From Eubacteriales bacterium (GTDB lineage Bacteria > Bacillota > Clostridia > Oscillospirales > CAG-272): a stretch of 64,000 nucleotides of DNA. Shown in pieces: positions 16,123-63,924 of this stretch. The DNA is taken from assembly GCA_045634385.1 (NCBI GenBank), contig JAZRAE010000093.1:5086-69085 (forward strand). Reading direction: 5' to 3'. A program made the translations under genes and the position numbers. Numbering within the stretch: position 1 is the first letter of the stretch; the number at the start of each line of letters is the position of its first letter. Below the pieces are notes generated by a model. That model saw only the letters and a list, made by a program, of their open reading frames with translations. It had not been told where the DNA came from and did not search any database.

Positions 16123-16325
16123 GTGAAGTTTTTGCTGCCGCAAAAGTGAAGTTGCTATGCAGTGAAGTACGTGCTATCGCACGAGTGAAGTCAAGTTTGC
16201 CCACTTTGCCGTAGGCAAAACTTCACTATCCGTAGGATAACTTCACTATCCGTAGAATAACTTCACTATCCGTAGGATAACTTCACTTACGAAGTATACT
16301 TCACTTGCCCATAAGGGCAAACTTA
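16123..16325. repeat. inverted word array: 4x GTGAAGT then 5x ACTTCAC, each word separated by a mini-palindrome; includes a 20-bp tandem repeat x3
   Basis: GTGAAGT at 16123, 16146, 16162, 16185. ACTTCAC at 16220, 16240, 16260, 16280, 16298. Unit CTTCACTATCCGTAGGATAA repeats at 16221/16241/16261. Confidence 0.9.
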
Positions 16326-16361
16326 GTTATGCGTGTTCTCCGTTTAAAGCTTATATTATTT

Positions 16362-31774: not shown

Positions 31775-31862
31775 AAACCTGTCCCGTGACTGACGGATCT
31801 TCGCGGATATAACCGCGGTGCCACGGAGACTTACATATTTAATGCCGACCGTCTGGGCGCAC
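31775..31862 (+). promoter_or_regulatory. ZTP (pfl-motif) riboswitch aptamer
   Basis: CCCGUGACUGACGG...CGCGG-auauaa-CCGCG...CCACGG, a linker, then CCGACCGUCUGGGCGC. This matches the conserved GUGACUGGCG ... CCGCCUGGGC cores. Sits upstream of purE. Confidence 0.8.
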
Positions 31863-31900
31863 TTCCTTTTCCTTGGGTAAGTGCGCCTTTTTGTATTTTT
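31856..31900 (+). terminator. riboswitch expression-platform terminator
   Basis: GGCGCACTT-(14 nt)-AAGTGCGCC followed by TTTTTGTATTTTTT. The 5' arm overlaps the conserved CUGGGCGC of the aptamer. Confidence 0.8.
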
Positions 31901-56625: not shown

Positions 56626-56710
56626 CATGTTTTTTCATTTTTGTTTTAAAATAAATTTTTATACGCAATATTAAATCTCATAGCTTATATTTGATCTCTT
56701 CGATTTAAAT

Positions 56711-56748
56711 AAAAAAGATGCACGATAACAAAATTCGCACATCTTTTT
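56711..56748. terminator. terminator closing the GRM-containing transcription unit
   Basis: AAAAAAGATGCACGA-(9 nt)-TCGCACATCTTTTT, imperfect stem. This is the first terminator-like hairpin downstream of 64000 on the minus strand. Confidence 0.55.
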
Positions 56749-56774
56749 GAGTAAATATGTCAATTGTACTTTAC

Positions 56775-57332
56775 TTATTTATACTTTAATCCGTCAGAAA
56801 ACGCCCTGCCAACTATTTCTCCAACAACACGGTAGGTGTGGTTTGCGGAATCGTACGTTATAGGCTTAAGCTTATCGGGATCTATTTTCCCGTCCGTCAA
56901 AAATGCTTCGTCGCAGCTTACGTTCACTATTTCACCTACCAAGCGACAGCTCTCGGGATCATAGCTTTTCACAAGACACTCGACCGCCATCGGTAATTCG
57001 AGAATGATAGGAGCATCGACAAAATCACTCTTTACGGTGTTAAGCCCGCATCGAGAAAGCTTATCCGGTACTTTATTACCACTCTCTATGCCAACGTAAT
57101 CACACTCTTTGACGTAATCGGCAGTAGCCATACTCACTGTGAAAGCACCGCGCACCAAAAAGTTTTTTGTCGTTTTATGATCGGCACTCACGCAAATGGT
57201 TATCTCATTTTCCTCACTTATACCGCCCCAAGCCGCATTCATCGCATTAGGAATCCCCTGTTCATCATATGTTCCGATGATAAACACCGGCATCGGGTAG
57301 ACCATAGGCTTTACACCAAAGTTTTTTCTCAT
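56775..57332 (-). CDS. flavin reductase family protein
   Basis: 185 aa. YPMPVFIIGTYDEQGIPNAMNAAWGG pattern. Confidence 0.7.
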   Translation of the reverse strand: MRKNFGVKPMVYPMPVFIIGTYDEQGIPNAMNAAWGGISEENEITICVSADHKTTKNFLVRGAFTVSMATADYVKECDYVGIESGNKVPDKLSRCGLNTVKSDFVDAPIILELPMAVECLVKSYDPESCRLVGEIVNVSCDEAFLTDGKIDPDKLKPITYDSANHTYRVVGEIVGRAFSDGLKYK

Positions 57333-57341
57333 TTTTTCTCC

Positions 57342-57746
57342 TTATTCCAAAAACCTTTCTCTGCCCCACCAATCGGGCATAAGCTCGCCGAGCTTTACCG
57401 TGGTTTTCTTTTCAAAATCGGCAAGTATTTCGATATCACAGCTTCTTTTAGAAAGTTGCATCATTAACTCTCGGCAAGCACCGCATGGCGATCCTACTCT
57501 GCCGTCGCCCATAATGCAAACAAGCTTTTCAATCTCACACTCACCGTTAGTTATCATATTTGCAATAGCATTTCTCTCGGCACACATACCGAGCGAGCAA
57601 CAAGTGTCTATACAGACACCAACGTATATATTACCGCTCTTTGTCAGTATAGCCGCCGCAACTCCGCCCGCATCAACAAACGGAGATATCACTCTCCCGT
57701 TTTGTACCTTGAGTGCTTTGTTGTATAACGTATCCCAAATATTCAT
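57342..57746 (-). CDS. cdd: cytidine/deoxycytidylate deaminase-fold zinc protein (Cdd/blasticidin-S deaminase-like)
   Basis: 134 aa. CAERNAI and PCGACRE zinc motifs. Confidence 0.7.
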   Translation of the reverse strand: MNIWDTLYNKALKVQNGRVISPFVDAGGVAAAILTKSGNIYVGVCIDTCCSLGMCAERNAIANMITNGECEIEKLVCIMGDGRVGSPCGACRELMMQLSKRSCDIEILADFEKKTTVKLGELMPDWWGRERFLE

Positions 57747-57755
57747 AGCCTGTTA

Positions 57756-58082
57756 TCAGAGCAGATGCACAGGCAGATCATCACCAAGTCCAAAGCGAAG
57801 GAATCCGTCGGGATGAGCCTCAGTTGAAATCTTATCCTCGATATTCGTTTTTGTCTTTGATTCTGCCTTCTTGCATGCCTTTTCTATCTCCGGCTTTTTC
57901 ACAGGAGGCTTTTTCTCCTTGGGTGCTGTATTCTTTTTCGGAGCTGTCTTTTTAGGCTCCGCCTTGATTGGCTCCAATACAGGCTCAGCAATCTCGCTAT
58001 GTTCCATATCGGGAGCAGATGTATTCACCTTTGAATAACCGTTATTTGATACTCTCTTAAGAGCGTTCTTACCTATTGGCAT
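57756..58082 (-). CDS. small basic, largely disordered protein; candidate ParA partner/adaptor
   Basis: 108 aa. N-terminus MPIGKNALKRV, a K/P/E/A/T-rich centre, and a C-terminus GFLRFGLGDDLPVHLL. The start overlaps the parA-like 3' end by 14 nt. Confidence 0.55.
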   Translation of the reverse strand: MPIGKNALKRVSNNGYSKVNTSAPDMEHSEIAEPVLEPIKAEPKKTAPKKNTAPKEKKPPVKKPEIEKACKKAESKTKTNIEDKISTEAHPDGFLRFGLGDDLPVHLL

Positions 58083-58860
58083 ATACGATTATCTCCTTTG
58101 CAAGCTTTGTGTACTCTATAGCACTGCGGCTATATCTCTTGTATGCAACGACAGGCTGACTGTTATCCTGCGCCCACTCGATCGTGGAGTCAATCCTGAT
58201 ATAAGTGTTGAAAAGTCGTGCCGCATCAAATTCCTTTAGAGTCTCATAGGTCTGCTTAAAATAGCTCTTACGCTCATCCGCCTTTGTGATAGCAATACCC
58301 ATAACCTCAAGACGGGGGTTAAGATTCTTAACCTGTGAGATAAAGTCGAACATATTTGCAAGGCCGAAAAGTCCCCACGGGCTTGCCTCGACCGGAATAA
58401 TTATAAAGTCGCTGACAGCAAGAATGTTCATGACCCAACCGCCAAGTGTAGGCGGAGCATCAATGAGAATAAAGTCATAATAACCACGTGCAATTATCGG
58501 CGAGAGGCACTTACGAAGTATGAACTCTCTTTGCCACTTGGTGAACAAATCATATTCGATTGAGCTCATAAGAGAAGATGAGGGTATGATGTCGAGATTT
58601 TCATATTTTGTTTCAGCAACAAAATATGAAAGATCCTTTTCCCCCTTCATTGCAGTATGTATATTTTTCTCATTGGTAGCAAAGCCGAGTGCCTCGTCCT
58701 CGTCAAAGAAGGACAGCGTAAGGTTAAGCTGCATATCACCGTCAATAAGTAATACACGCTTGCCCGCCTTTGCCATTGCAAGACCTACGTTTGAGCAAGT
58801 GGTGGTCTTGCCGCTTCCGCCCTTATTGTTGGCGAACGCTATAACTTTGGTTCTGCTCAT
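58069..58860 (-). CDS. ParA/Soj/MinD-family P-loop ATPase
   Basis: 263 aa. Deviant Walker A NNKGGSGKTT, LLIDGDMQ, Walker B FILIDAPP. ATGA overlap with the pduV-like stop. Confidence 0.88.
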   Translation of the reverse strand: MSRTKVIAFANNKGGSGKTTTCSNVGLAMAKAGKRVLLIDGDMQLNLTLSFFDEDEALGFATNEKNIHTAMKGEKDLSYFVAETKYENLDIIPSSSLMSSIEYDLFTKWQREFILRKCLSPIIARGYYDFILIDAPPTLGGWVMNILAVSDFIIIPVEASPWGLFGLANMFDFISQVKNLNPRLEVMGIAITKADERKSYFKQTYETLKEFDAARLFNTYIRIDSTIEWAQDNSQPVVAYKRYSRSAIEYTKLAKEIIVYANR

Positions 58861-59309
58861 TTTTCTTCTTTCTCCTTTTTCTCGTCCTCGCTCAGATAGT
58901 CGAGGAGCTTATCTATCCCCTCACCCGTCACGGCACTGAGGGGGAATATTTTTTTACAGCCTGCAAGTCTTAACCATCTCTCAACACGCTCAACGTTGGC
59001 ATCCGGCTTATCAATACCGGATATTATGCCGACAACCTCTCGATTGACAAGGCTGGTAATGCAAGGCGAGAAAATTGAGTATGGCTCGTTTGCACTAAGC
59101 ACGAGTCCTACAACGTCCGCCTCATACGAATAAAGTGCCAATGCTCCGCTTGTCTGTCTTAGCTCCGTGTATTCACCCGGAGTATCTATGATGGTATCCA
59201 TATAATTGACGTACTGTGTTTTAAAGTATTTTATCTCCTCGCCGCGCAGAGCCTGAGTCAGAGTGGTCTTGCCTGCGGCTACCCTTCCTATCAGTATAAT
59301 TTTTTTCAT
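58857..59309 (-). CDS. pduV: EutP/PduV-family microcompartment-associated GTPase
   Basis: 150 aa. LIGRVAAGKTTLTQAL and IDTPGEY match EutP/PduV. Confidence 0.85.
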   Translation of the reverse strand: MKKIILIGRVAAGKTTLTQALRGEEIKYFKTQYVNYMDTIIDTPGEYTELRQTSGALALYSYEADVVGLVLSANEPYSIFSPCITSLVNREVVGIISGIDKPDANVERVERWLRLAGCKKIFPLSAVTGEGIDKLLDYLSEDEKKEKEEK

Positions 59310-59312
59310 AGC

Positions 59313-59672
59313 TTAGGTTTTTGTTATCTCGCAGCAGGTGTATCCGAGCTTATTGATAACGTACTCTCTTATAGAAGCAAAAGCCGTCTCCACAGAGGAT
59401 ACGCTGCCCGAAATAATAAGTGTGCCGGTAAATCTGTCAACGAAGCCGATATCAGCTCCGGATGACTTTATAGCAATATCCGCCGCGATAACCGCGCTTT
59501 CTGCAGGAGAGATAGTAAGCACCCCTATTGCAGAACGACTATAATCGGTCTTTGGATCAAGTCCGAGCTTTGTGTATAGAATATCATCAGGGTTGGCAAT
59601 TATATGACACAGTGTCACCTGTTTACCGGGAACCAGCTCCTGTACTATTCTCATTTTTTCTCTAAGTTCCAT
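59313..59672 (-). CDS. pduU: circularly permuted BMC shell protein (EutS/PduU type)
   Basis: Start MELREK with a GGAGG RBS. QELVPGKQVTLCHIIANP...AIGVLTISPAESAVIAADIA...GFVDRFTGTLIISG closely parallels EutS. Confidence 0.85.
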   Translation of the reverse strand: MELREKMRIVQELVPGKQVTLCHIIANPDDILYTKLGLDPKTDYSRSAIGVLTISPAESAVIAADIAIKSSGADIGFVDRFTGTLIISGSVSSVETAFASIREYVINKLGYTCCEITKT

Positions 59673-59744
59673 TTTTCCTCCGAAATATGTAAACAAAAGT
59701 TGTTGTTTAATTGTTATATCCCATTTAAATCTTCATCACAGTAT

Positions 59745-60521
59745 TTATCCGCCGATTTGACACTTAAGCCCCGACGTCTCAGCAACCGACAACAGATGTT
59801 GCATTTTTTCCTTTGCGGGAGGCTCTATTTGTGGGAGTGTATAAACCCTGCCGAGTCCCGCGTATTTATCTGTACCAAGTCTGTGATAAGGTAAAAGATG
59901 ATATTCCTCAACATTCTTAAGCTTTCTTGCAAAGTCTGCAATCGCTTTTATATCCATGTCACTGTCATTAAAAGTCGGAATTACGGGAGTTCTGATTATC
60001 AACTCTACACCACTTTCGGCAATCAGCTTTGCGTTTTCGAGTATACGCTCATTTGAAGCTCCTGTGTACTCCTTGTGCTTATCGCTATCCATATGCTTAA
60101 TATCCATAAGGTAAAGATCAAGATACGGAAGCAGCTTTTCTATATCCGAAAACGGTGCATTTGCACTTGACTCTATCGCTGTATGAAGTCCCACTTCCTT
60201 ACACGCACGGAGCAATTCGGCTGCAAAGTCCGCCTGCGCGAGCACCTCGCCACCCGAAAGCGTCACACCACCGCCGGAGCGTCTGTAATACGGCAGATCA
60301 GCAAGGATCTCGGGCATAATATCCGCAACCGTCACATCACGTCCAACCGTCTTTTCCTTGCCGCCCTCGATAAGAGTCTCTATCTCATATCTCTGCGACT
60401 CCGGATTACAACACCAAGCACATCTCATATAGCAGCCCTTGAAGAACACTATCGTCCTTATACCCGGCCCATCGTGGATCGAAAAGCGTTGTATATTGAA
60501 GATCCTTCCCTTTCTTTCCAT
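59745..60521 (-). CDS. glycyl-radical enzyme activating enzyme (radical SAM), short form without ferredoxin-like insert
   Basis: 258 aa from MERKGRIFNIQRFSIHDGPGIRT. Contains GCYMRCAWCCNPES. No CX2CX2CX3C motifs follow. Confidence 0.88.
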   Translation of the reverse strand: MERKGRIFNIQRFSIHDGPGIRTIVFFKGCYMRCAWCCNPESQRYEIETLIEGGKEKTVGRDVTVADIMPEILADLPYYRRSGGGVTLSGGEVLAQADFAAELLRACKEVGLHTAIESSANAPFSDIEKLLPYLDLYLMDIKHMDSDKHKEYTGASNERILENAKLIAESGVELIIRTPVIPTFNDSDMDIKAIADFARKLKNVEEYHLLPYHRLGTDKYAGLGRVYTLPQIEPPAKEKMQHLLSVAETSGLKCQIGG

Positions 60522-60607
60522 ATTTTTACCTCGAACATTTTTTCTTAATATAACATTCACCGCGCATTTTTTCACTGGTTTGGCAACGATATTTTGATGA
60601 AGTTTTT

Positions 60608-60664
60608 GTCTTCTTCGACCCGAAGCAATAGCTACCTATTGCAAGTTTTCCGAAAAACGAAAAT
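60608..60664. repeat. copy 1 of about 57-bp hairpin-module direct repeat in the GRE-activase spacer
   Basis: GTCTTCTTCGACCCGAAGCAATAGCTACCTATTGCAAGTTTTCCGAAAAACGAAAATA. Contains GCAATAG-ctac-CTATTGC. Confidence 0.85.
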
Positions 60665-60757
60665 ACGCAAATCCTCGATATGAAGATTTTTATAACCCTT
60701 ATCCTCTTCAACCCGTACCTTGGTAGTATTAGTCGTACAAATTTTTAGATAGATTTG

Positions 60758-60816
60758 TCGTTCTTGAGGCCGAAGCAATAGTTACCTATTGCGAGTTCGC
60801 CGAAAAACGGCGAATA
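60758..60816. repeat. copy 2 of the hairpin-module direct repeat
   Basis: GTCGTTCTTGAGGCCGAAGCAATAGTTACCTATTGCGAGTTCGCCGAAAAACGGCGAATA. Same order of elements, 150 bp from copy 1. Confidence 0.85.
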
Positions 60817-60834
60817 TATCAAAAATTTGATAGA

Positions 60835-63366
60835 CTAAAAGCCTTGCTCGGTGCGGTTGATAATATCATCCTGTAAGGACTTTGATAAAGTGGTGAACAA
60901 AGCACTGTAGCCTGCCACTCTTACTACAAGAGTCTTGTATTTATCGGGATGTGCCTGAGCATCAAGGAGAGTTTCCTTTGTTACTACGTTGAACTGTACG
61001 TGCATACCCTTTTGATCAAAGTAGGATCGAATGAGTGCAACAAACTTGCTAAGCCCCTTCATACCTTCAAGGGCCGAGGGATGGAACTTCTGGTTAAGAA
61101 GCGTACCGTTGGAGGCTACGCATTGCTCAAGCTTGGCGACCGAGTTTGCCGTCGCAGTAGGGCCTTTGACATCTCTGCCGGATGCCGGGCCAATGCCGTC
61201 AGCAAGGGGCGTGTAAGCTAAACGGCCATCGGGAGTCGCTCCCGTAGTTCCGCCGAGAGGTACATTGGCAGATACAGGATAAAGTCCTGCCTGGAAGATT
61301 CCGCCACGAACGTTCTTGTACTTTTCTACCTCTTTTGTATAGGTGTTTGCAACATCACGTGCAAACATATCAACTTCATATATATCGTTACCATACTTTG
61401 GGCAAGTCTCGTCGATTAGTCTTTTTATCTCCTTGTATCTCGCTTTTGTAGCATCGTCTATAGCAGATGCTGTAGTAACCTCTCTGTATATAGTCTCAAT
61501 AGCCGAGGGGGTAATCTCTATCCCCTGTTTTGCAAGCTCGATAGCAACCTCTGCGGTGAGTCTTTCTGCCGCTGCACCCTGAATACCGTAACCGAAATTC
61601 GCCTTAAGTGCCTCGCGGAACTCTGCCATTGTAACCTTTTTCTCATCGAAAACAAGCTGCTTCACCGCGATAAGACCATCGGTATTGTTTGCAATACCAA
61701 AGCCCTGCGGACCTGTAAAGTTGTACACGGCTCCGCCCTCTTGGAGAGATTTGCCTCTTCCGATGCAGTCATCTACCATACAGGACTGGAACGGAAGCGG
61801 ACAACGTTTTGCGTGTGCGGAGTCGATCGCATTATTTGCGTTTACAAGCAACTTTATCATATAGCTCTGCTGAGCCTTATACGCATTATAGAATTCCTCG
61901 AAGGTGGTCATTTTAGCCACGTCACCCGTCTCAGGACCTATCTTTTTGCCCTTGTCCATACCATTTGAGAAGGCAAGTTCCAAGGGACGGCACATATTGA
62001 AGAATGCCGCATCATGCCAACCATCGGTCTTTCCGCCCTTCTGAGGCTCAACGCAACCGATAATACAGTAGTCACGCGCATCCTCAAGAGTGAGACCGCG
62101 AGCCATTATCGAAGGAATAATTATCTCGTCATTGTAATAAGCGGGCAGACCCGTGCCGAGTCTTGTCAATGATGCCGCCTTAATAAGCAGATCCTCGGGT
62201 GAGCCGTTCCACACTCTTATGGATATGGAGGGCTGAGGAAGCGGTACGTGTATAGCCGCCTCAATACACATATAGGACAGGTCATTTGTCGAGTCCATAC
62301 CATGCTCGTCCTGACCGCCAACAATAAGGTTTTGGAACATACCGTAGCCTGCAAATCCGTCTGCAGAAACGGCGTCACGAACCTTGTTTATATCGTTAAA
62401 CTTAACCCAGATACAATCAAGAAGCTCTTGCGCTTGTTCTCTTGTGATTACACCTTTATCAATATCAGCCTTGTAATAAGGATACATATATCGGTCAAAG
62501 CGTCCGGGAGAAATGGAGTGTCCGCTCGACTCGATCTGAAGAAGCAACTGAACAAACCAGAAGGACTGGCAAGCCTCGTGGAAGGTAGTTGCGCCGAACT
62601 CCGGAACACGCGCGCAGTTTTTAGCTATTACTTCAAGCTCGCGCTTTCTATCGGGATTCTTCTCTTTGCCTGCAAGCTCTCGGGCAAGTCTTGAATATCT
62701 TCTTGCATGCTCTATAACCGCTTCACAGCTCTCAATTACTGCCTCAAGGAAGTTTGCTCTCTGTACGTACTCGGCATCGGCAAAATCAAGCTTATCAAGT
62801 GCCGCGTTTGCCTCGGCTATAATTCCGCGATATCCAATCTTCAATACCTTATCGTACTGAACACACACGTGACCGATTCCGTTGTAGAAATAGTTTCCGG
62901 GGGTAAAGACGTTGTGCTCGGTGAACGCCGCATAAGCCTCGGGGGCCATATTTGCCTTTGCAAGATCCGAACAGGTCTTTCCTTTCCACCAGGGGTAAAT
63001 AGCACGAAGTTCAGCCTTGGTTTTTTCGCTTATGTAGAATGGATCCGCCGCACGGGTGGATACCGTGTCAAGTTCTGCCTCGAGCCACTCATATGAATAC
63101 TCGGGGAACACCTGACATCCTCTGGGTGCAACTGTAGCACTTCCGACAATGAGCTCACCCTCTCTTATAACTATGGGAAGGTTCTCAAGGATGTGAGCAA
63201 ATGCCGCACTTCTACGCTTTATAATAGGCAGATTTTCGGTCTGCTTATAGCTCTCTGTAACAAGAATTCCGCGCGCGGATTCTATCTCGGGCATCTTCTC
63301 GTAAAGAGTATTCACGAGCTTACCGATTCTCGCGCTTTTTTCAATTACAAACTTAATGTTTTCCAT
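60835..63366 (-). CDS. glycyl radical enzyme, eliminase/dehydratase class (diol-dehydratase-like or choline-lyase-like)
   Basis: 843 aa. C-terminal glycyl radical motif VRVAGYSALF. Thiyl loop IIGCVEPQKGGKTDGWHD has a single Cys plus Glu, which is not the PFL CC pair. Confidence 0.9.
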   Translation of the reverse strand: MENIKFVIEKSARIGKLVNTLYEKMPEIESARGILVTESYKQTENLPIIKRRSAAFAHILENLPIVIREGELIVGSATVAPRGCQVFPEYSYEWLEAELDTVSTRAADPFYISEKTKAELRAIYPWWKGKTCSDLAKANMAPEAYAAFTEHNVFTPGNYFYNGIGHVCVQYDKVLKIGYRGIIAEANAALDKLDFADAEYVQRANFLEAVIESCEAVIEHARRYSRLARELAGKEKNPDRKRELEVIAKNCARVPEFGATTFHEACQSFWFVQLLLQIESSGHSISPGRFDRYMYPYYKADIDKGVITREQAQELLDCIWVKFNDINKVRDAVSADGFAGYGMFQNLIVGGQDEHGMDSTNDLSYMCIEAAIHVPLPQPSISIRVWNGSPEDLLIKAASLTRLGTGLPAYYNDEIIIPSIMARGLTLEDARDYCIIGCVEPQKGGKTDGWHDAAFFNMCRPLELAFSNGMDKGKKIGPETGDVAKMTTFEEFYNAYKAQQSYMIKLLVNANNAIDSAHAKRCPLPFQSCMVDDCIGRGKSLQEGGAVYNFTGPQGFGIANNTDGLIAVKQLVFDEKKVTMAEFREALKANFGYGIQGAAAERLTAEVAIELAKQGIEITPSAIETIYREVTTASAIDDATKARYKEIKRLIDETCPKYGNDIYEVDMFARDVANTYTKEVEKYKNVRGGIFQAGLYPVSANVPLGGTTGATPDGRLAYTPLADGIGPASGRDVKGPTATANSVAKLEQCVASNGTLLNQKFHPSALEGMKGLSKFVALIRSYFDQKGMHVQFNVVTKETLLDAQAHPDKYKTLVVRVAGYSALFTTLSKSLQDDIINRTEQGF

Positions 63367-63378
63367 CTTAAGCTCTCC

Positions 63379-63924
63379 TTACATCTGATTCCAGAGTTCC
63401 TCGTGGGGTGCGGCAATCACCGAGTAGGATGAAAGCATCGCATTCTCCTTTGCATAATCAGCTCCCGCTTCTATTGCCGCAGTAACGTCACCTATCTCAC
63501 CTGTGACCATTAGTATTCCCTTTCCGCCCATGCCTCTCGATACACGCAGATCGTAAATCTCAACTCTCGCAGTCTTGACAGCGATGTCAGCCGCCTTGAT
63601 CGCGCTCGCCGCAGAGTAGGTCTCGAGTAGACCGAGAGAGCCTGAGCGCTCTGCCGCGTGAGTACCGAAGAGAGCCGAGATAACCTGCTCTTCTATCCTA
63701 CCGATAATCGACGAGTCTATCACAAAGCCCTCAAATTTCGAAGATACGTGACCTACTGCCGCCGTAACGTTGGATATAGAGCCGGTCAATATTATCTCAT
63801 ACTTACCGGGACATGAGGGATGGCTTGACACCATCTCAACGCCGGCACTCTTAAGTGCCGCATCCGCCGCTTCAACGCCTTTAGGTATGCTTTTCAGTTC
63901 TATTACACCTATTGCTTTATACAT
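63379..63924 (-). CDS. pduT: tandem-domain BMC-T shell protein (PduT type)
   Basis: 181 aa, two BMC domains. MYKAIGVIELKSIPKGVEAADAALKSA... with Cys38 in SCPGKY, the position of the PduT Fe-S ligand. Confidence 0.85.
   Translation of the reverse strand: MYKAIGVIELKSIPKGVEAADAALKSAGVEMVSSHPSCPGKYEIILTGSISNVTAAVGHVSSKFEGFVIDSSIIGRIEEQVISALFGTHAAERSGSLGLLETYSAASAIKAADIAVKTARVEIYDLRVSRGMGGKGILMVTGEIGDVTAAIEAGADYAKENAMLSSYSVIAAPHEELWNQM

Follow-up and report, generated by a model that had tools for sequence, protein, structure and literature searches.

A candidate McdAB-like positioning module in a glycyl-radical 1,2-propanediol microcompartment operon of uncultured Clostridia

The 64,000-nt stretch of DNA analyzed here (the window, from contig JAZRAE010000093.1 of an Eubacteriales bacterium) contains a bacterial microcompartment (BMC) operon in which the gene for a ParA-type ATPase is followed directly by a short open reading frame (ORF) encoding 108 aa. 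We considered this gene pair as a candidate positioning module of the McdAB kind, known from carboxysomes, for a glycyl-radical 1,2-propanediol microcompartment (GRM), and we refer to the 108-aa protein as the adaptor. All genes of the module lie on the minus strand of the window, in the order BMC-T, glycyl-radical enzyme (GRE), GRE activase, PduU/EutS-type shell protein, PduV/EutP GTPase, ParA and adaptor (Table 1). The PduU gene stands directly upstream of PduV, is kept at every locus compared, and encodes a protein whose best solved structures are 4AXI (EutS type, 1e-33) and 3CGI (PduU, 5e-30). The ParA start and the PduV stop overlap as ATGA ('tcat' on the plus strand at 58857-58860), and the 3' end of ParA overlaps the adaptor ORF by 14 nt. 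No terminator-like site was found on the minus strand from 57756 to 63924 in a scan for consensus matches only, and an Rfam search gave no match within the locus. The first-pass annotation of this DNA had described a complete ParA with three motifs starting on the EutP/PduV stop, a 108-aa ORF behind it with a 14-nt overlap, and a pair not cut off by a terminator from the shell, GRE and activase genes; the sequence and Pfam matches, the coordinates and the consensus scan agree with it on all three points.

Table 1. Coordinates of the module and its neighbors. Positions are those of the window, except for the tailed PduV genes, which are given by locus.
Feature	Position	Strand	Basis
Soj-like ParA-type ATPase, 263 aa, putative McdA analog	58069..58860	-	AAA_31 2.7e-52
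Deviant Walker A KGGSGKTT, residues 13-20, signature lysine K13	58801..58824	-	read from sequence
Walker A' region LLIDGDMQ, residues 37-44	58729..58752	-	sequence and ParA alignment
Walker B region FILIDAPP, residues 130-137	58450..58473	-	sequence and ParA alignment
Adaptor, 108 aa, predicted disordered, McdB-like (stop codon included)	57756..58082	-	257 homologs
N-terminal motif of adaptor, residues 1-29, MPIGKNALKRVSNNGYSKVNTSAPDMEHS	57996..58082	-	near-invariant columns, 166 sequences
K/P/A/E/T-rich linker of adaptor, residues 33-88	57819..57986	-	composition
C-terminal motif of adaptor, residues 89-108, AHPDGFLRFGLGDDLPVHLL, putative cargo anchor	57759..57818	-	conservation
Shine-Dalgarno AAAGGAGAT of adaptor gene	58091..58099	-	inside ParA codons A-K-E-I
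PduV/EutP-family small GTPase, 150 aa	58857..59309	-	PF10662 5.6e-52
PduU/EutS-type circularly permuted BMC-H shell protein	59313..59696	-	Pfam BMC 6.9e-11
GRE activase	59745-60575	-	gene order of window
Glycyl-radical enzyme (GRE)	60835-63366	-	gene order of window
BMC-T	63379-63924	-	gene order of window
Tailed PduV genes	L015:8043-8573, L040:7817-8401, L063:10001-10597, L064:10001-10525, L065:10001-10555		sequence comparison

The ATPase carries NNKGGSGKTT (residues 11-20), LLIDGDMQ (37-44) and FILIDAPP (130-137), which together hold the residues that mark the ParA/MinD group: K13, K18, D40 and D42 of DGD, and D134 of LIDAPP. This deviant Walker A and the remaining motifs are kept in 95% or more of the 56 distinct ParA sequences that were aligned, and the orthologs in this alignment are 62-94% identical. 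Besides its AAA_31 match the protein matched CbiA in Pfam (9e-19). Its best solved structures were the ParA 8RAY (1e-30) and H. pylori Soj 6IUB (1e-28), with McdA 6NOO at 4e-13. Four positions of ParA, K202, K241, R242 and R245, are basic in at least 90% of the sequences and align with the DNA-contact residue K199 and with the K247 region of H. pylori Soj.

The adaptor had no match in Pfam or NCBIfam, and 257 homologs were found at E<=0.01. A full HMMER scan of the family profile against 1.84 billion representative proteins returned 272 matches at E<=1e-3; among the matches listed (the best 150 of the 272), all start at residue 1 and lengths range from 72 to 202 aa. Judged from these searches, the adaptor family is real, compact and closed. 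Motif columns were counted over 166 distinct sequences. The N-terminus follows the near-invariant consensus MP[IV]GKNALKRVxNNGYSxVxxxAPDMExS, in which the basic positions K5 (164/166), K9 (163/166) and R10 (166/166) are retained. Behind it lies a linker of 11-151 residues that varies in sequence while its composition stays constant (pooled K 27%, A 16%, E 13%, P 13% and T 10%, with 11% hydrophobic residues); in the window's adaptor the linker is 77% K/P/E/A/T, and the protein ends ...GFLRFGLGDDLPVHLL. The C-terminal core reads G-x-[DE]-[LM]-P-x-[Y/H/W/F]-L-L-COOH, with the P at -5 and the terminal LL invariant. These family-wide counts bear out the basic N-terminal MPIGKNALKRV, the K/P/E/A/T center and the conserved-looking C-terminal patch that the first-pass annotation had picked out in a single protein.

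Position -3 of the adaptor is the variable site of the C-terminal core. His occupies it in 85 of the 166 sequences, Tyr in 78, Trp in two and Phe in one; of 55 species representatives, 33 have Y, 15 have H, 6 have W and 1 has F, so that Y/W/F stand in 40/55. At least 10 independent changes at this site were found on the ParA tree, with His alternating freely with Tyr, and acidic D/E residues stand at -7/-8, just before it. By these counts, His is an additional allowed residue beside the aromatic hallmark published for McdB, but it is not among the residues that published work has tested. An AlphaFold2 (AF2) model of the adaptor built with the family alignment had a mean predicted local distance difference test score (pLDDT) of 64 and a predicted template modeling score of 0.17, and its one helix, of low confidence, lay in the variable region only. 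The adaptor is thus predicted to be disordered along its chain, and each of its two ends carries a short conserved motif.

Conservation also extends to the signals for translation of the adaptor. The AAGGAG core of its ribosome-binding site, formed by the synonymous codons AAG and GAG inside ParA, is present in 57/57 loci, the full 9-mer varying in four; the overlap between ParA and adaptor is 14 nt in 53/56 loci; and the reading frame stays intact through all linker indels. The survival of the frame through these indels and the conservation of both the core and the overlap speak for translation of the adaptor. The possibility raised in the first-pass annotation, that the ORF is not conserved or not translated, is therefore not borne out.

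The distribution of the module was examined in one genome per GTDB species, which gave 56 loci, and in three further metagenome loci (L063-L065). The carriers of the 56 loci are all metagenome-assembled genomes (MAGs) of gut or rumen Clostridia, labeled Christensenellaceae, Candidatus Scatosoma, Oscillospiraceae, 'uncultured Ruminococcus' or Eubacteriales. Where upstream DNA suffices, tblastn recovered BMC-T, GRE, activase, PduU, PduV, ParA and adaptor in the same order throughout the 56 loci and L063-L065, and adaptor identity to the relatives at these loci is 32-61%. As far as upstream DNA reaches, the pair is found neither mainly at partition sites nor apart from BMC genes in these 56 + 3 loci, either of which would have spoken against the first-pass interpretation.

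The upstream half of the locus, read from two loci (L001 and L064), encodes an aldehyde dehydrogenase, an alcohol dehydrogenase, four BMC-H proteins, PduL, EutN and a PduS-like protein. The nearest match of the GRE was the B12-independent diol dehydratase of Roseburia inulinivorans, 5I2A (1196 bits), and the GRE did not reach the cut-offs of the NCBIfam equivalog models for CutC and HypD. In one metagenome locus, rhaM (L-rhamnose mutarotase) lies between BMC-T and GRE (L065:5201-5518), which is consistent with a role of this GRM type in converting rhamnose or fucose to 1,2-propanediol. Because the GRE is nearest to 5I2A and stays below the CutC and HypD cut-offs, and because rhaM occurs in a related locus, the compartment is assigned to the 1,2-propanediol type of GRM.

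We hypothesize, with a probability of roughly 0.7 and by analogy with McdAB, that ParA and the adaptor form a positioning module dedicated to this GRM. The strict synteny with the GRM genes, the motif architecture of the adaptor and the lack of DNA-partition features support this reading. The Soj-like ParA would dimerize with ATP and bind the nucleoid non-specifically. The basic N-terminal peptide of the adaptor (MPIGKNALKRV, with K5, K9 and R10) would dock on the ParA dimer and stimulate ATP hydrolysis, by analogy with the N-termini of ParB and McdB. McdB of H. neapolitanus needs its first 20 residues to bind McdA, and these residues also suffice, with K7 critical (PMC12139897), and we infer from this that residues 1-29 of the adaptor are a putative ParA-binding, ATPase-stimulating peptide. 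The C-terminal peptide would dock on the compartment exterior, most likely on a shell protein, and the lysine-rich linker would span the two ends; the last 10 residues of H. neapolitanus McdB suffice for carboxysome binding (PMC11321042). Around adaptor-coated compartments ParA-ATP would be depleted locally and the compartments would be driven apart along the nucleoid by a Brownian ratchet, an outcome that would prevent aggregation and ensure inheritance.

Several observations weigh against a McdAB-like function. No solved McdA is as close to this ParA as Soj is, and ParA shows none of the features that are specific to McdA of cyanobacteria. Cyanobacterial McdA of beta type 2 has a double Trp beside Walker A' and 210-228 aa, while in beta type 1 a Ser replaces the signature Lys and the protein has a mid-protein extension (PMC7182216); the ParA described here has 263 aa, no WW beside LLIDGDMQ, and the signature Lys. 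On these sequence grounds it is no ortholog of cyanobacterial McdA, which leaves the functional analogy unaffected. Since ParA is nearer to Soj, that analogy rests on context rather than orthology: like McdA, the ATPase is encoded in a BMC operon, and the gene of a small partner follows directly downstream. Ser225 and Glu228 of ParA stand where H. pylori Soj has the DNA-contact residues K227 and K230, so nucleoid binding is plausible but not assured. The window's adaptor (…GDDLPVHLL) has His at -3 and not a classical aromatic, and its lysine-rich linker might serve a separate function, for example DNA binding, that lies outside a simple McdAB model. Finally, every carrier is an uncultured MAG, and the evidence is genomic.

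The choice of docking partner on the compartment is informed by the tails of PduV. The PduV of the window has a short acidic/basic tail and no [W/Y]LL anchor, and PduV orthologs at these loci differ in their C-terminal tails. Of the best 120 homologs of a PduV with a long tail, 66 have a disordered extension, rich in lysine, that ends L-[DEA]-[TA]-[W/Y]-L-L-COOH; the lysine-rich tails span 25-60 residues, and in other lineages such a tail occurs without the anchor. At the five loci with tailed PduV genes listed in Table 1, the tailed PduV is encoded in the same type of GRM operon and is followed by ParA and an adaptor ending MPYYLL. Across 61 loci, only the adaptor, PduV tails and junk ORFs showed a [Y/W/H/F]LL-COOH end; a general cargo signal was rejected, as no other credible protein bears this end. 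Read most simply, the adaptor and PduV would dock on one receptor by the same portable anchor, aromatic-LL-COOH, and the sharing of this anchor may be a new finding.

A wider model, which we regard as a tentative possibility, makes one composite machine of these parts. The PduV GTPase and the ParA ATPase would share a single receptor on the compartment surface through the [DE]-x-x-[Y/W/H]-L-L-COOH peptide, which PduV would bear on its own lysine-rich tail and ParA would use through the adaptor, while the lysine-rich segments would contact nucleoid DNA directly. If true, this would be the first mechanistic role for PduV and would provide a transferable 'dock-to-metabolosome' tag.

An alternative keeps the same ParA/adaptor ratchet but has the C-terminal peptide of the adaptor dock on PduV, itself seated on PduU, so that PduV would be the physical link to the compartment. 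PduU, PduV, ParA and adaptor are always contiguous, PduV and ParA overlap as ATGA in the window, and the corresponding spacing of -4 recurs in 29/55 loci (range -38 to +54 nt). In the Pdu system, PduV has been reported outside the compartment, binding the PduU beta-barrel, from co-evolution and two-hybrid evidence (PMC4315436), and a [W/Y]LL tail bound to the G-domain of a neighboring PduV could explain the filament-like behavior reported for this protein. However, the PduV of many sister lineages itself ends ...L[DE]T[W/Y]LL-COOH beside a same-locus adaptor ending MPYYLL, and the simplest explanation is that both bind a third party. Nor did an AF2 model of a tailed PduV (P0380) place the tail on the G-domain, although that model was poor (mean pLDDT 57, tail 35-39) and uninformative on this point. 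We therefore consider PduV docking unlikely, if still the best placed of the alternatives. The first-pass annotation had left the adaptor to bridge either the shell or PduV to ParA; because sister-lineage PduV bears the [W/Y]LL-COOH end itself, a shell protein is now the somewhat likelier target, with PduV keeping the lesser share.

Instead of spacing compartments along the nucleoid, the pair could control biogenesis or material state, for example by nucleating or limiting shell assembly or by keeping cargo condensates fluid, with the lysine-rich protein as scaffold or DNA tether and ParA as its regulator. The positive charge of the linker is conserved (net charge at least +3 in 99% of sequences, median +7), PduV orthologs have lysine-rich tails too, some of them without the anchor, and McdB proteins condense in vitro (PMC8359340, PMC11321042). 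Against this, all characterized ParA-family members with such a partner architecture position cargo (PMC11407121), and two conserved ends joined by a highly variable linker suit a bridging adaptor better than a scaffold. We judge a role in biogenesis to be distinctly improbable.

It is very improbable that the pair represents a type Ib-like cassette for DNA partition, with a small ParA and a small centromere-binding protein, that lies in the operon by chance. ParA does resemble Soj and match NCBIfam ParA_partition at 9.7e-25, a score well short of the curated cut-off, and its partner, like ParG, is a small protein whose N-terminal tail is basic. Yet the adaptor is predicted to be disordered, neither a ribbon-helix-helix nor a helix-turn-helix fold is predicted for it, and no relative of it was found on plasmids or phages. 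The window has 2 parS-like matches where 2.1 are expected by chance, no iteron arrays lie near the ParA and adaptor genes, and the window encodes no second ParA or ParB. GRM linkage was seen in 56/56 species loci where upstream DNA suffices. In related genomes a chromosomal soj-spo0J pair exists apart from the operon; its Soj is ~34% identical to the operon ParA, which is therefore an extra paralog. A plasmid or chromosome partition cassette was thus rejected for want of parS, iterons and a plasmid or phage relative of the adaptor, and the window scans uphold the earlier statement that no ParB helix-turn-helix protein or parS-like repeat lies nearby. The soj-spo0J pair lies ~8 kb downstream of the GRM operon at L014:17471-19151, and is likewise found in L034 and L038. 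The N-terminus of the L014 Spo0J, MKKGLGRGLDSIF, loosely resembles MPIGKNALKRV of the adaptor (I-G-K-N-A-L), which we record as a lead only.

A MinD-like membrane ATPase was also rejected, as ParA has no C-terminal membrane-targeting amphipathic helix and ends ...KEIIVYANR straight after its last helix. We give practically no credence to the P-loop protein being an Mrp/NBP35/ApbC-type Fe-S carrier for the clusters of the activase, PduS-like or PduT-like proteins, a reading rejected because ParA has no CxxC motif (C22 and C118 are its only cysteines), and one in which weak matches to PF10609 (3.5e-9) and to NCBIfam ApbC/MrpORP, in an operon rich in Fe-S proteins, are set against far better matches to AAA_31, ParA and Soj and a conserved adaptor left unexplained.

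The surrounding DNA contains further features. Strong sigma-70-like consensus matches lie on the minus strand inside PduU (59413-59440, 11/12) and PduV (59023-59050, 10/12), and PduV, ParA and adaptor could conceivably have a transcript of their own, these being consensus matches only. The 259-nt gap between GRE and activase (60576-60834) holds a 69-nt direct repeat whose copies (60591-60659 and 60741-60809) are 75% identical; each copy contains a small hairpin, GCAATAG-CTACC-TATTGC, with no Rfam match, and the repeat may act in RNA processing or in attenuation, setting the GRE/activase ratio. On the 3' side of the adaptor (minus strand, 56775-57746) are genes for a cytidine-deaminase-like protein (57342-57746) and a flavin-reductase-like protein (56775-57332), which are probably co-transcribed with it because the gaps are only 9 nt; they were rejected as members of the module, as their synteny is confined to the nearest relatives. 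The transcript may end at an imperfect inverted repeat (56705-56755). Elsewhere in the window, and unrelated to the module, two Rfam matches exceed the gathering score: a Gut-1 RNA at 16255-16329 (minus strand, 51.9 bits) and a ZMP/ZTP riboswitch at 31776-31865 (plus strand, 41.7 bits).

To our knowledge, only carboxysomes have a characterized system for the spacing and inheritance of compartments, and the part that PduV plays has been unclear since 2010. The locus described here offers a compact, sharply defined candidate for catabolic microcompartments, with a 263-aa ATPase, an adaptor of ~100 residues that has two separable motifs, and a possible docking tag on PduV. By reconstitution with a GRM or Pdu shell in a tractable host, these parts could be used to test whether the McdAB principle reaches metabolosomes, and they may help to keep engineered compartments from aggregating. 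We regard the locus as a good experimental entry to metabolosome positioning and PduV function.

The association of ParA-type ATPases with microcompartments has been noted before. ParA (PF01656) was named an ancillary family of BMC loci in 2014 (PMC4207490). For four BMC operons other than those of carboxysomes, MacCready 2021 described genes like McdA and/or McdB, with a Tyr among the final four residues (PMC8359340), and Basalla 2024 gave C-terminal logos of McdB-like proteins from PDU and GRM operons, in which Tyr or Phe occurs (PMC11321042). McdA/McdB-like genes in or beside GRM, PDU and EUT operons are thus known from bioinformatic reports (PMC8359340 Fig. 8f, PMC11321042 Fig. 4, PMC8262871), and reviews through 2025 describe such BMC systems as 'yet to be studied'. 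In a 2026 study, heterologous McdAB, native ParA and native MinD had no effect on Pdu compartments of Salmonella (PMC12866334).

Compared with H. neapolitanus McdAB, the module shares a signature-lysine ParA encoded with BMC genes and a small partner gene directly after it. As in H. neapolitanus McdB, the partner is monomer-like and fully disordered (here by prediction), and its N-terminus is basic (K7 there; K5, K9 and R10 here). The short C-terminal peptide of H. neapolitanus McdB has an aromatic residue with acidic residues nearby. Of the published hallmarks of McdB (PMC8359340 section 2.9, PMC11321042 Fig. 4, PMC12139897), partner position, basic N-terminus and predicted disorder are present here, and the -3 residue with its acidic neighbors is aromatic in most species representatives but His in the window. 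The differences are that the cargo would be a catabolic glycyl-radical diol-dehydratase compartment of anaerobic Clostridia, that the end motif is [LM]Px[Y/H/W/F]LL-COOH, with Trp rare and His common, rather than R(V/I)WPD, that the linker is lysine- and proline-rich, that no sequence homology is detectable between the adaptors, and that the module is coupled to a PduV GTPase. With Soj/ParA the operon ATPase has in common its closeness in sequence to 8RAY and 6IUB; unlike chromosomal Soj/Spo0J, however, it has a partner without a ParB fold or helix-turn-helix, no parS, and a place inside a BMC operon. PduV/EutP, a proposed movement factor of Pdu compartments, is encoded directly upstream with translational coupling, and in sister lineages it shares the lysine-rich tail and the end of the adaptor, whereas its nucleoside triphosphatase fold and its mechanism differ from those of ParA and the window's own PduV has no such tail.

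The published McdB-like proteins of GRM, PDU and EUT operons agree with this family in concept and context; theirs have Tyr or Phe in the last 4-5 residues, and here Tyr stands at -3 in 33/55 species representatives. The GRM and PDU examples were given as sequences in figures only, with organisms not named in the text, and this family is possibly among them. The first-pass proposal of an McdAB-like system for a catabolic GRM therefore gains support from the genomic evidence, but the concept was already known from the genome comparisons of 2021-2024 and is not new as an idea. Beyond those accounts, the comparisons made here add the definition of the family, its size and its motifs, including the 29-residue N-terminal motif, the His variant at -3, the conservation of synteny across 56 species, the exclusion of the partition and Fe-S readings, and the anchor that the adaptor appears to share with PduV.

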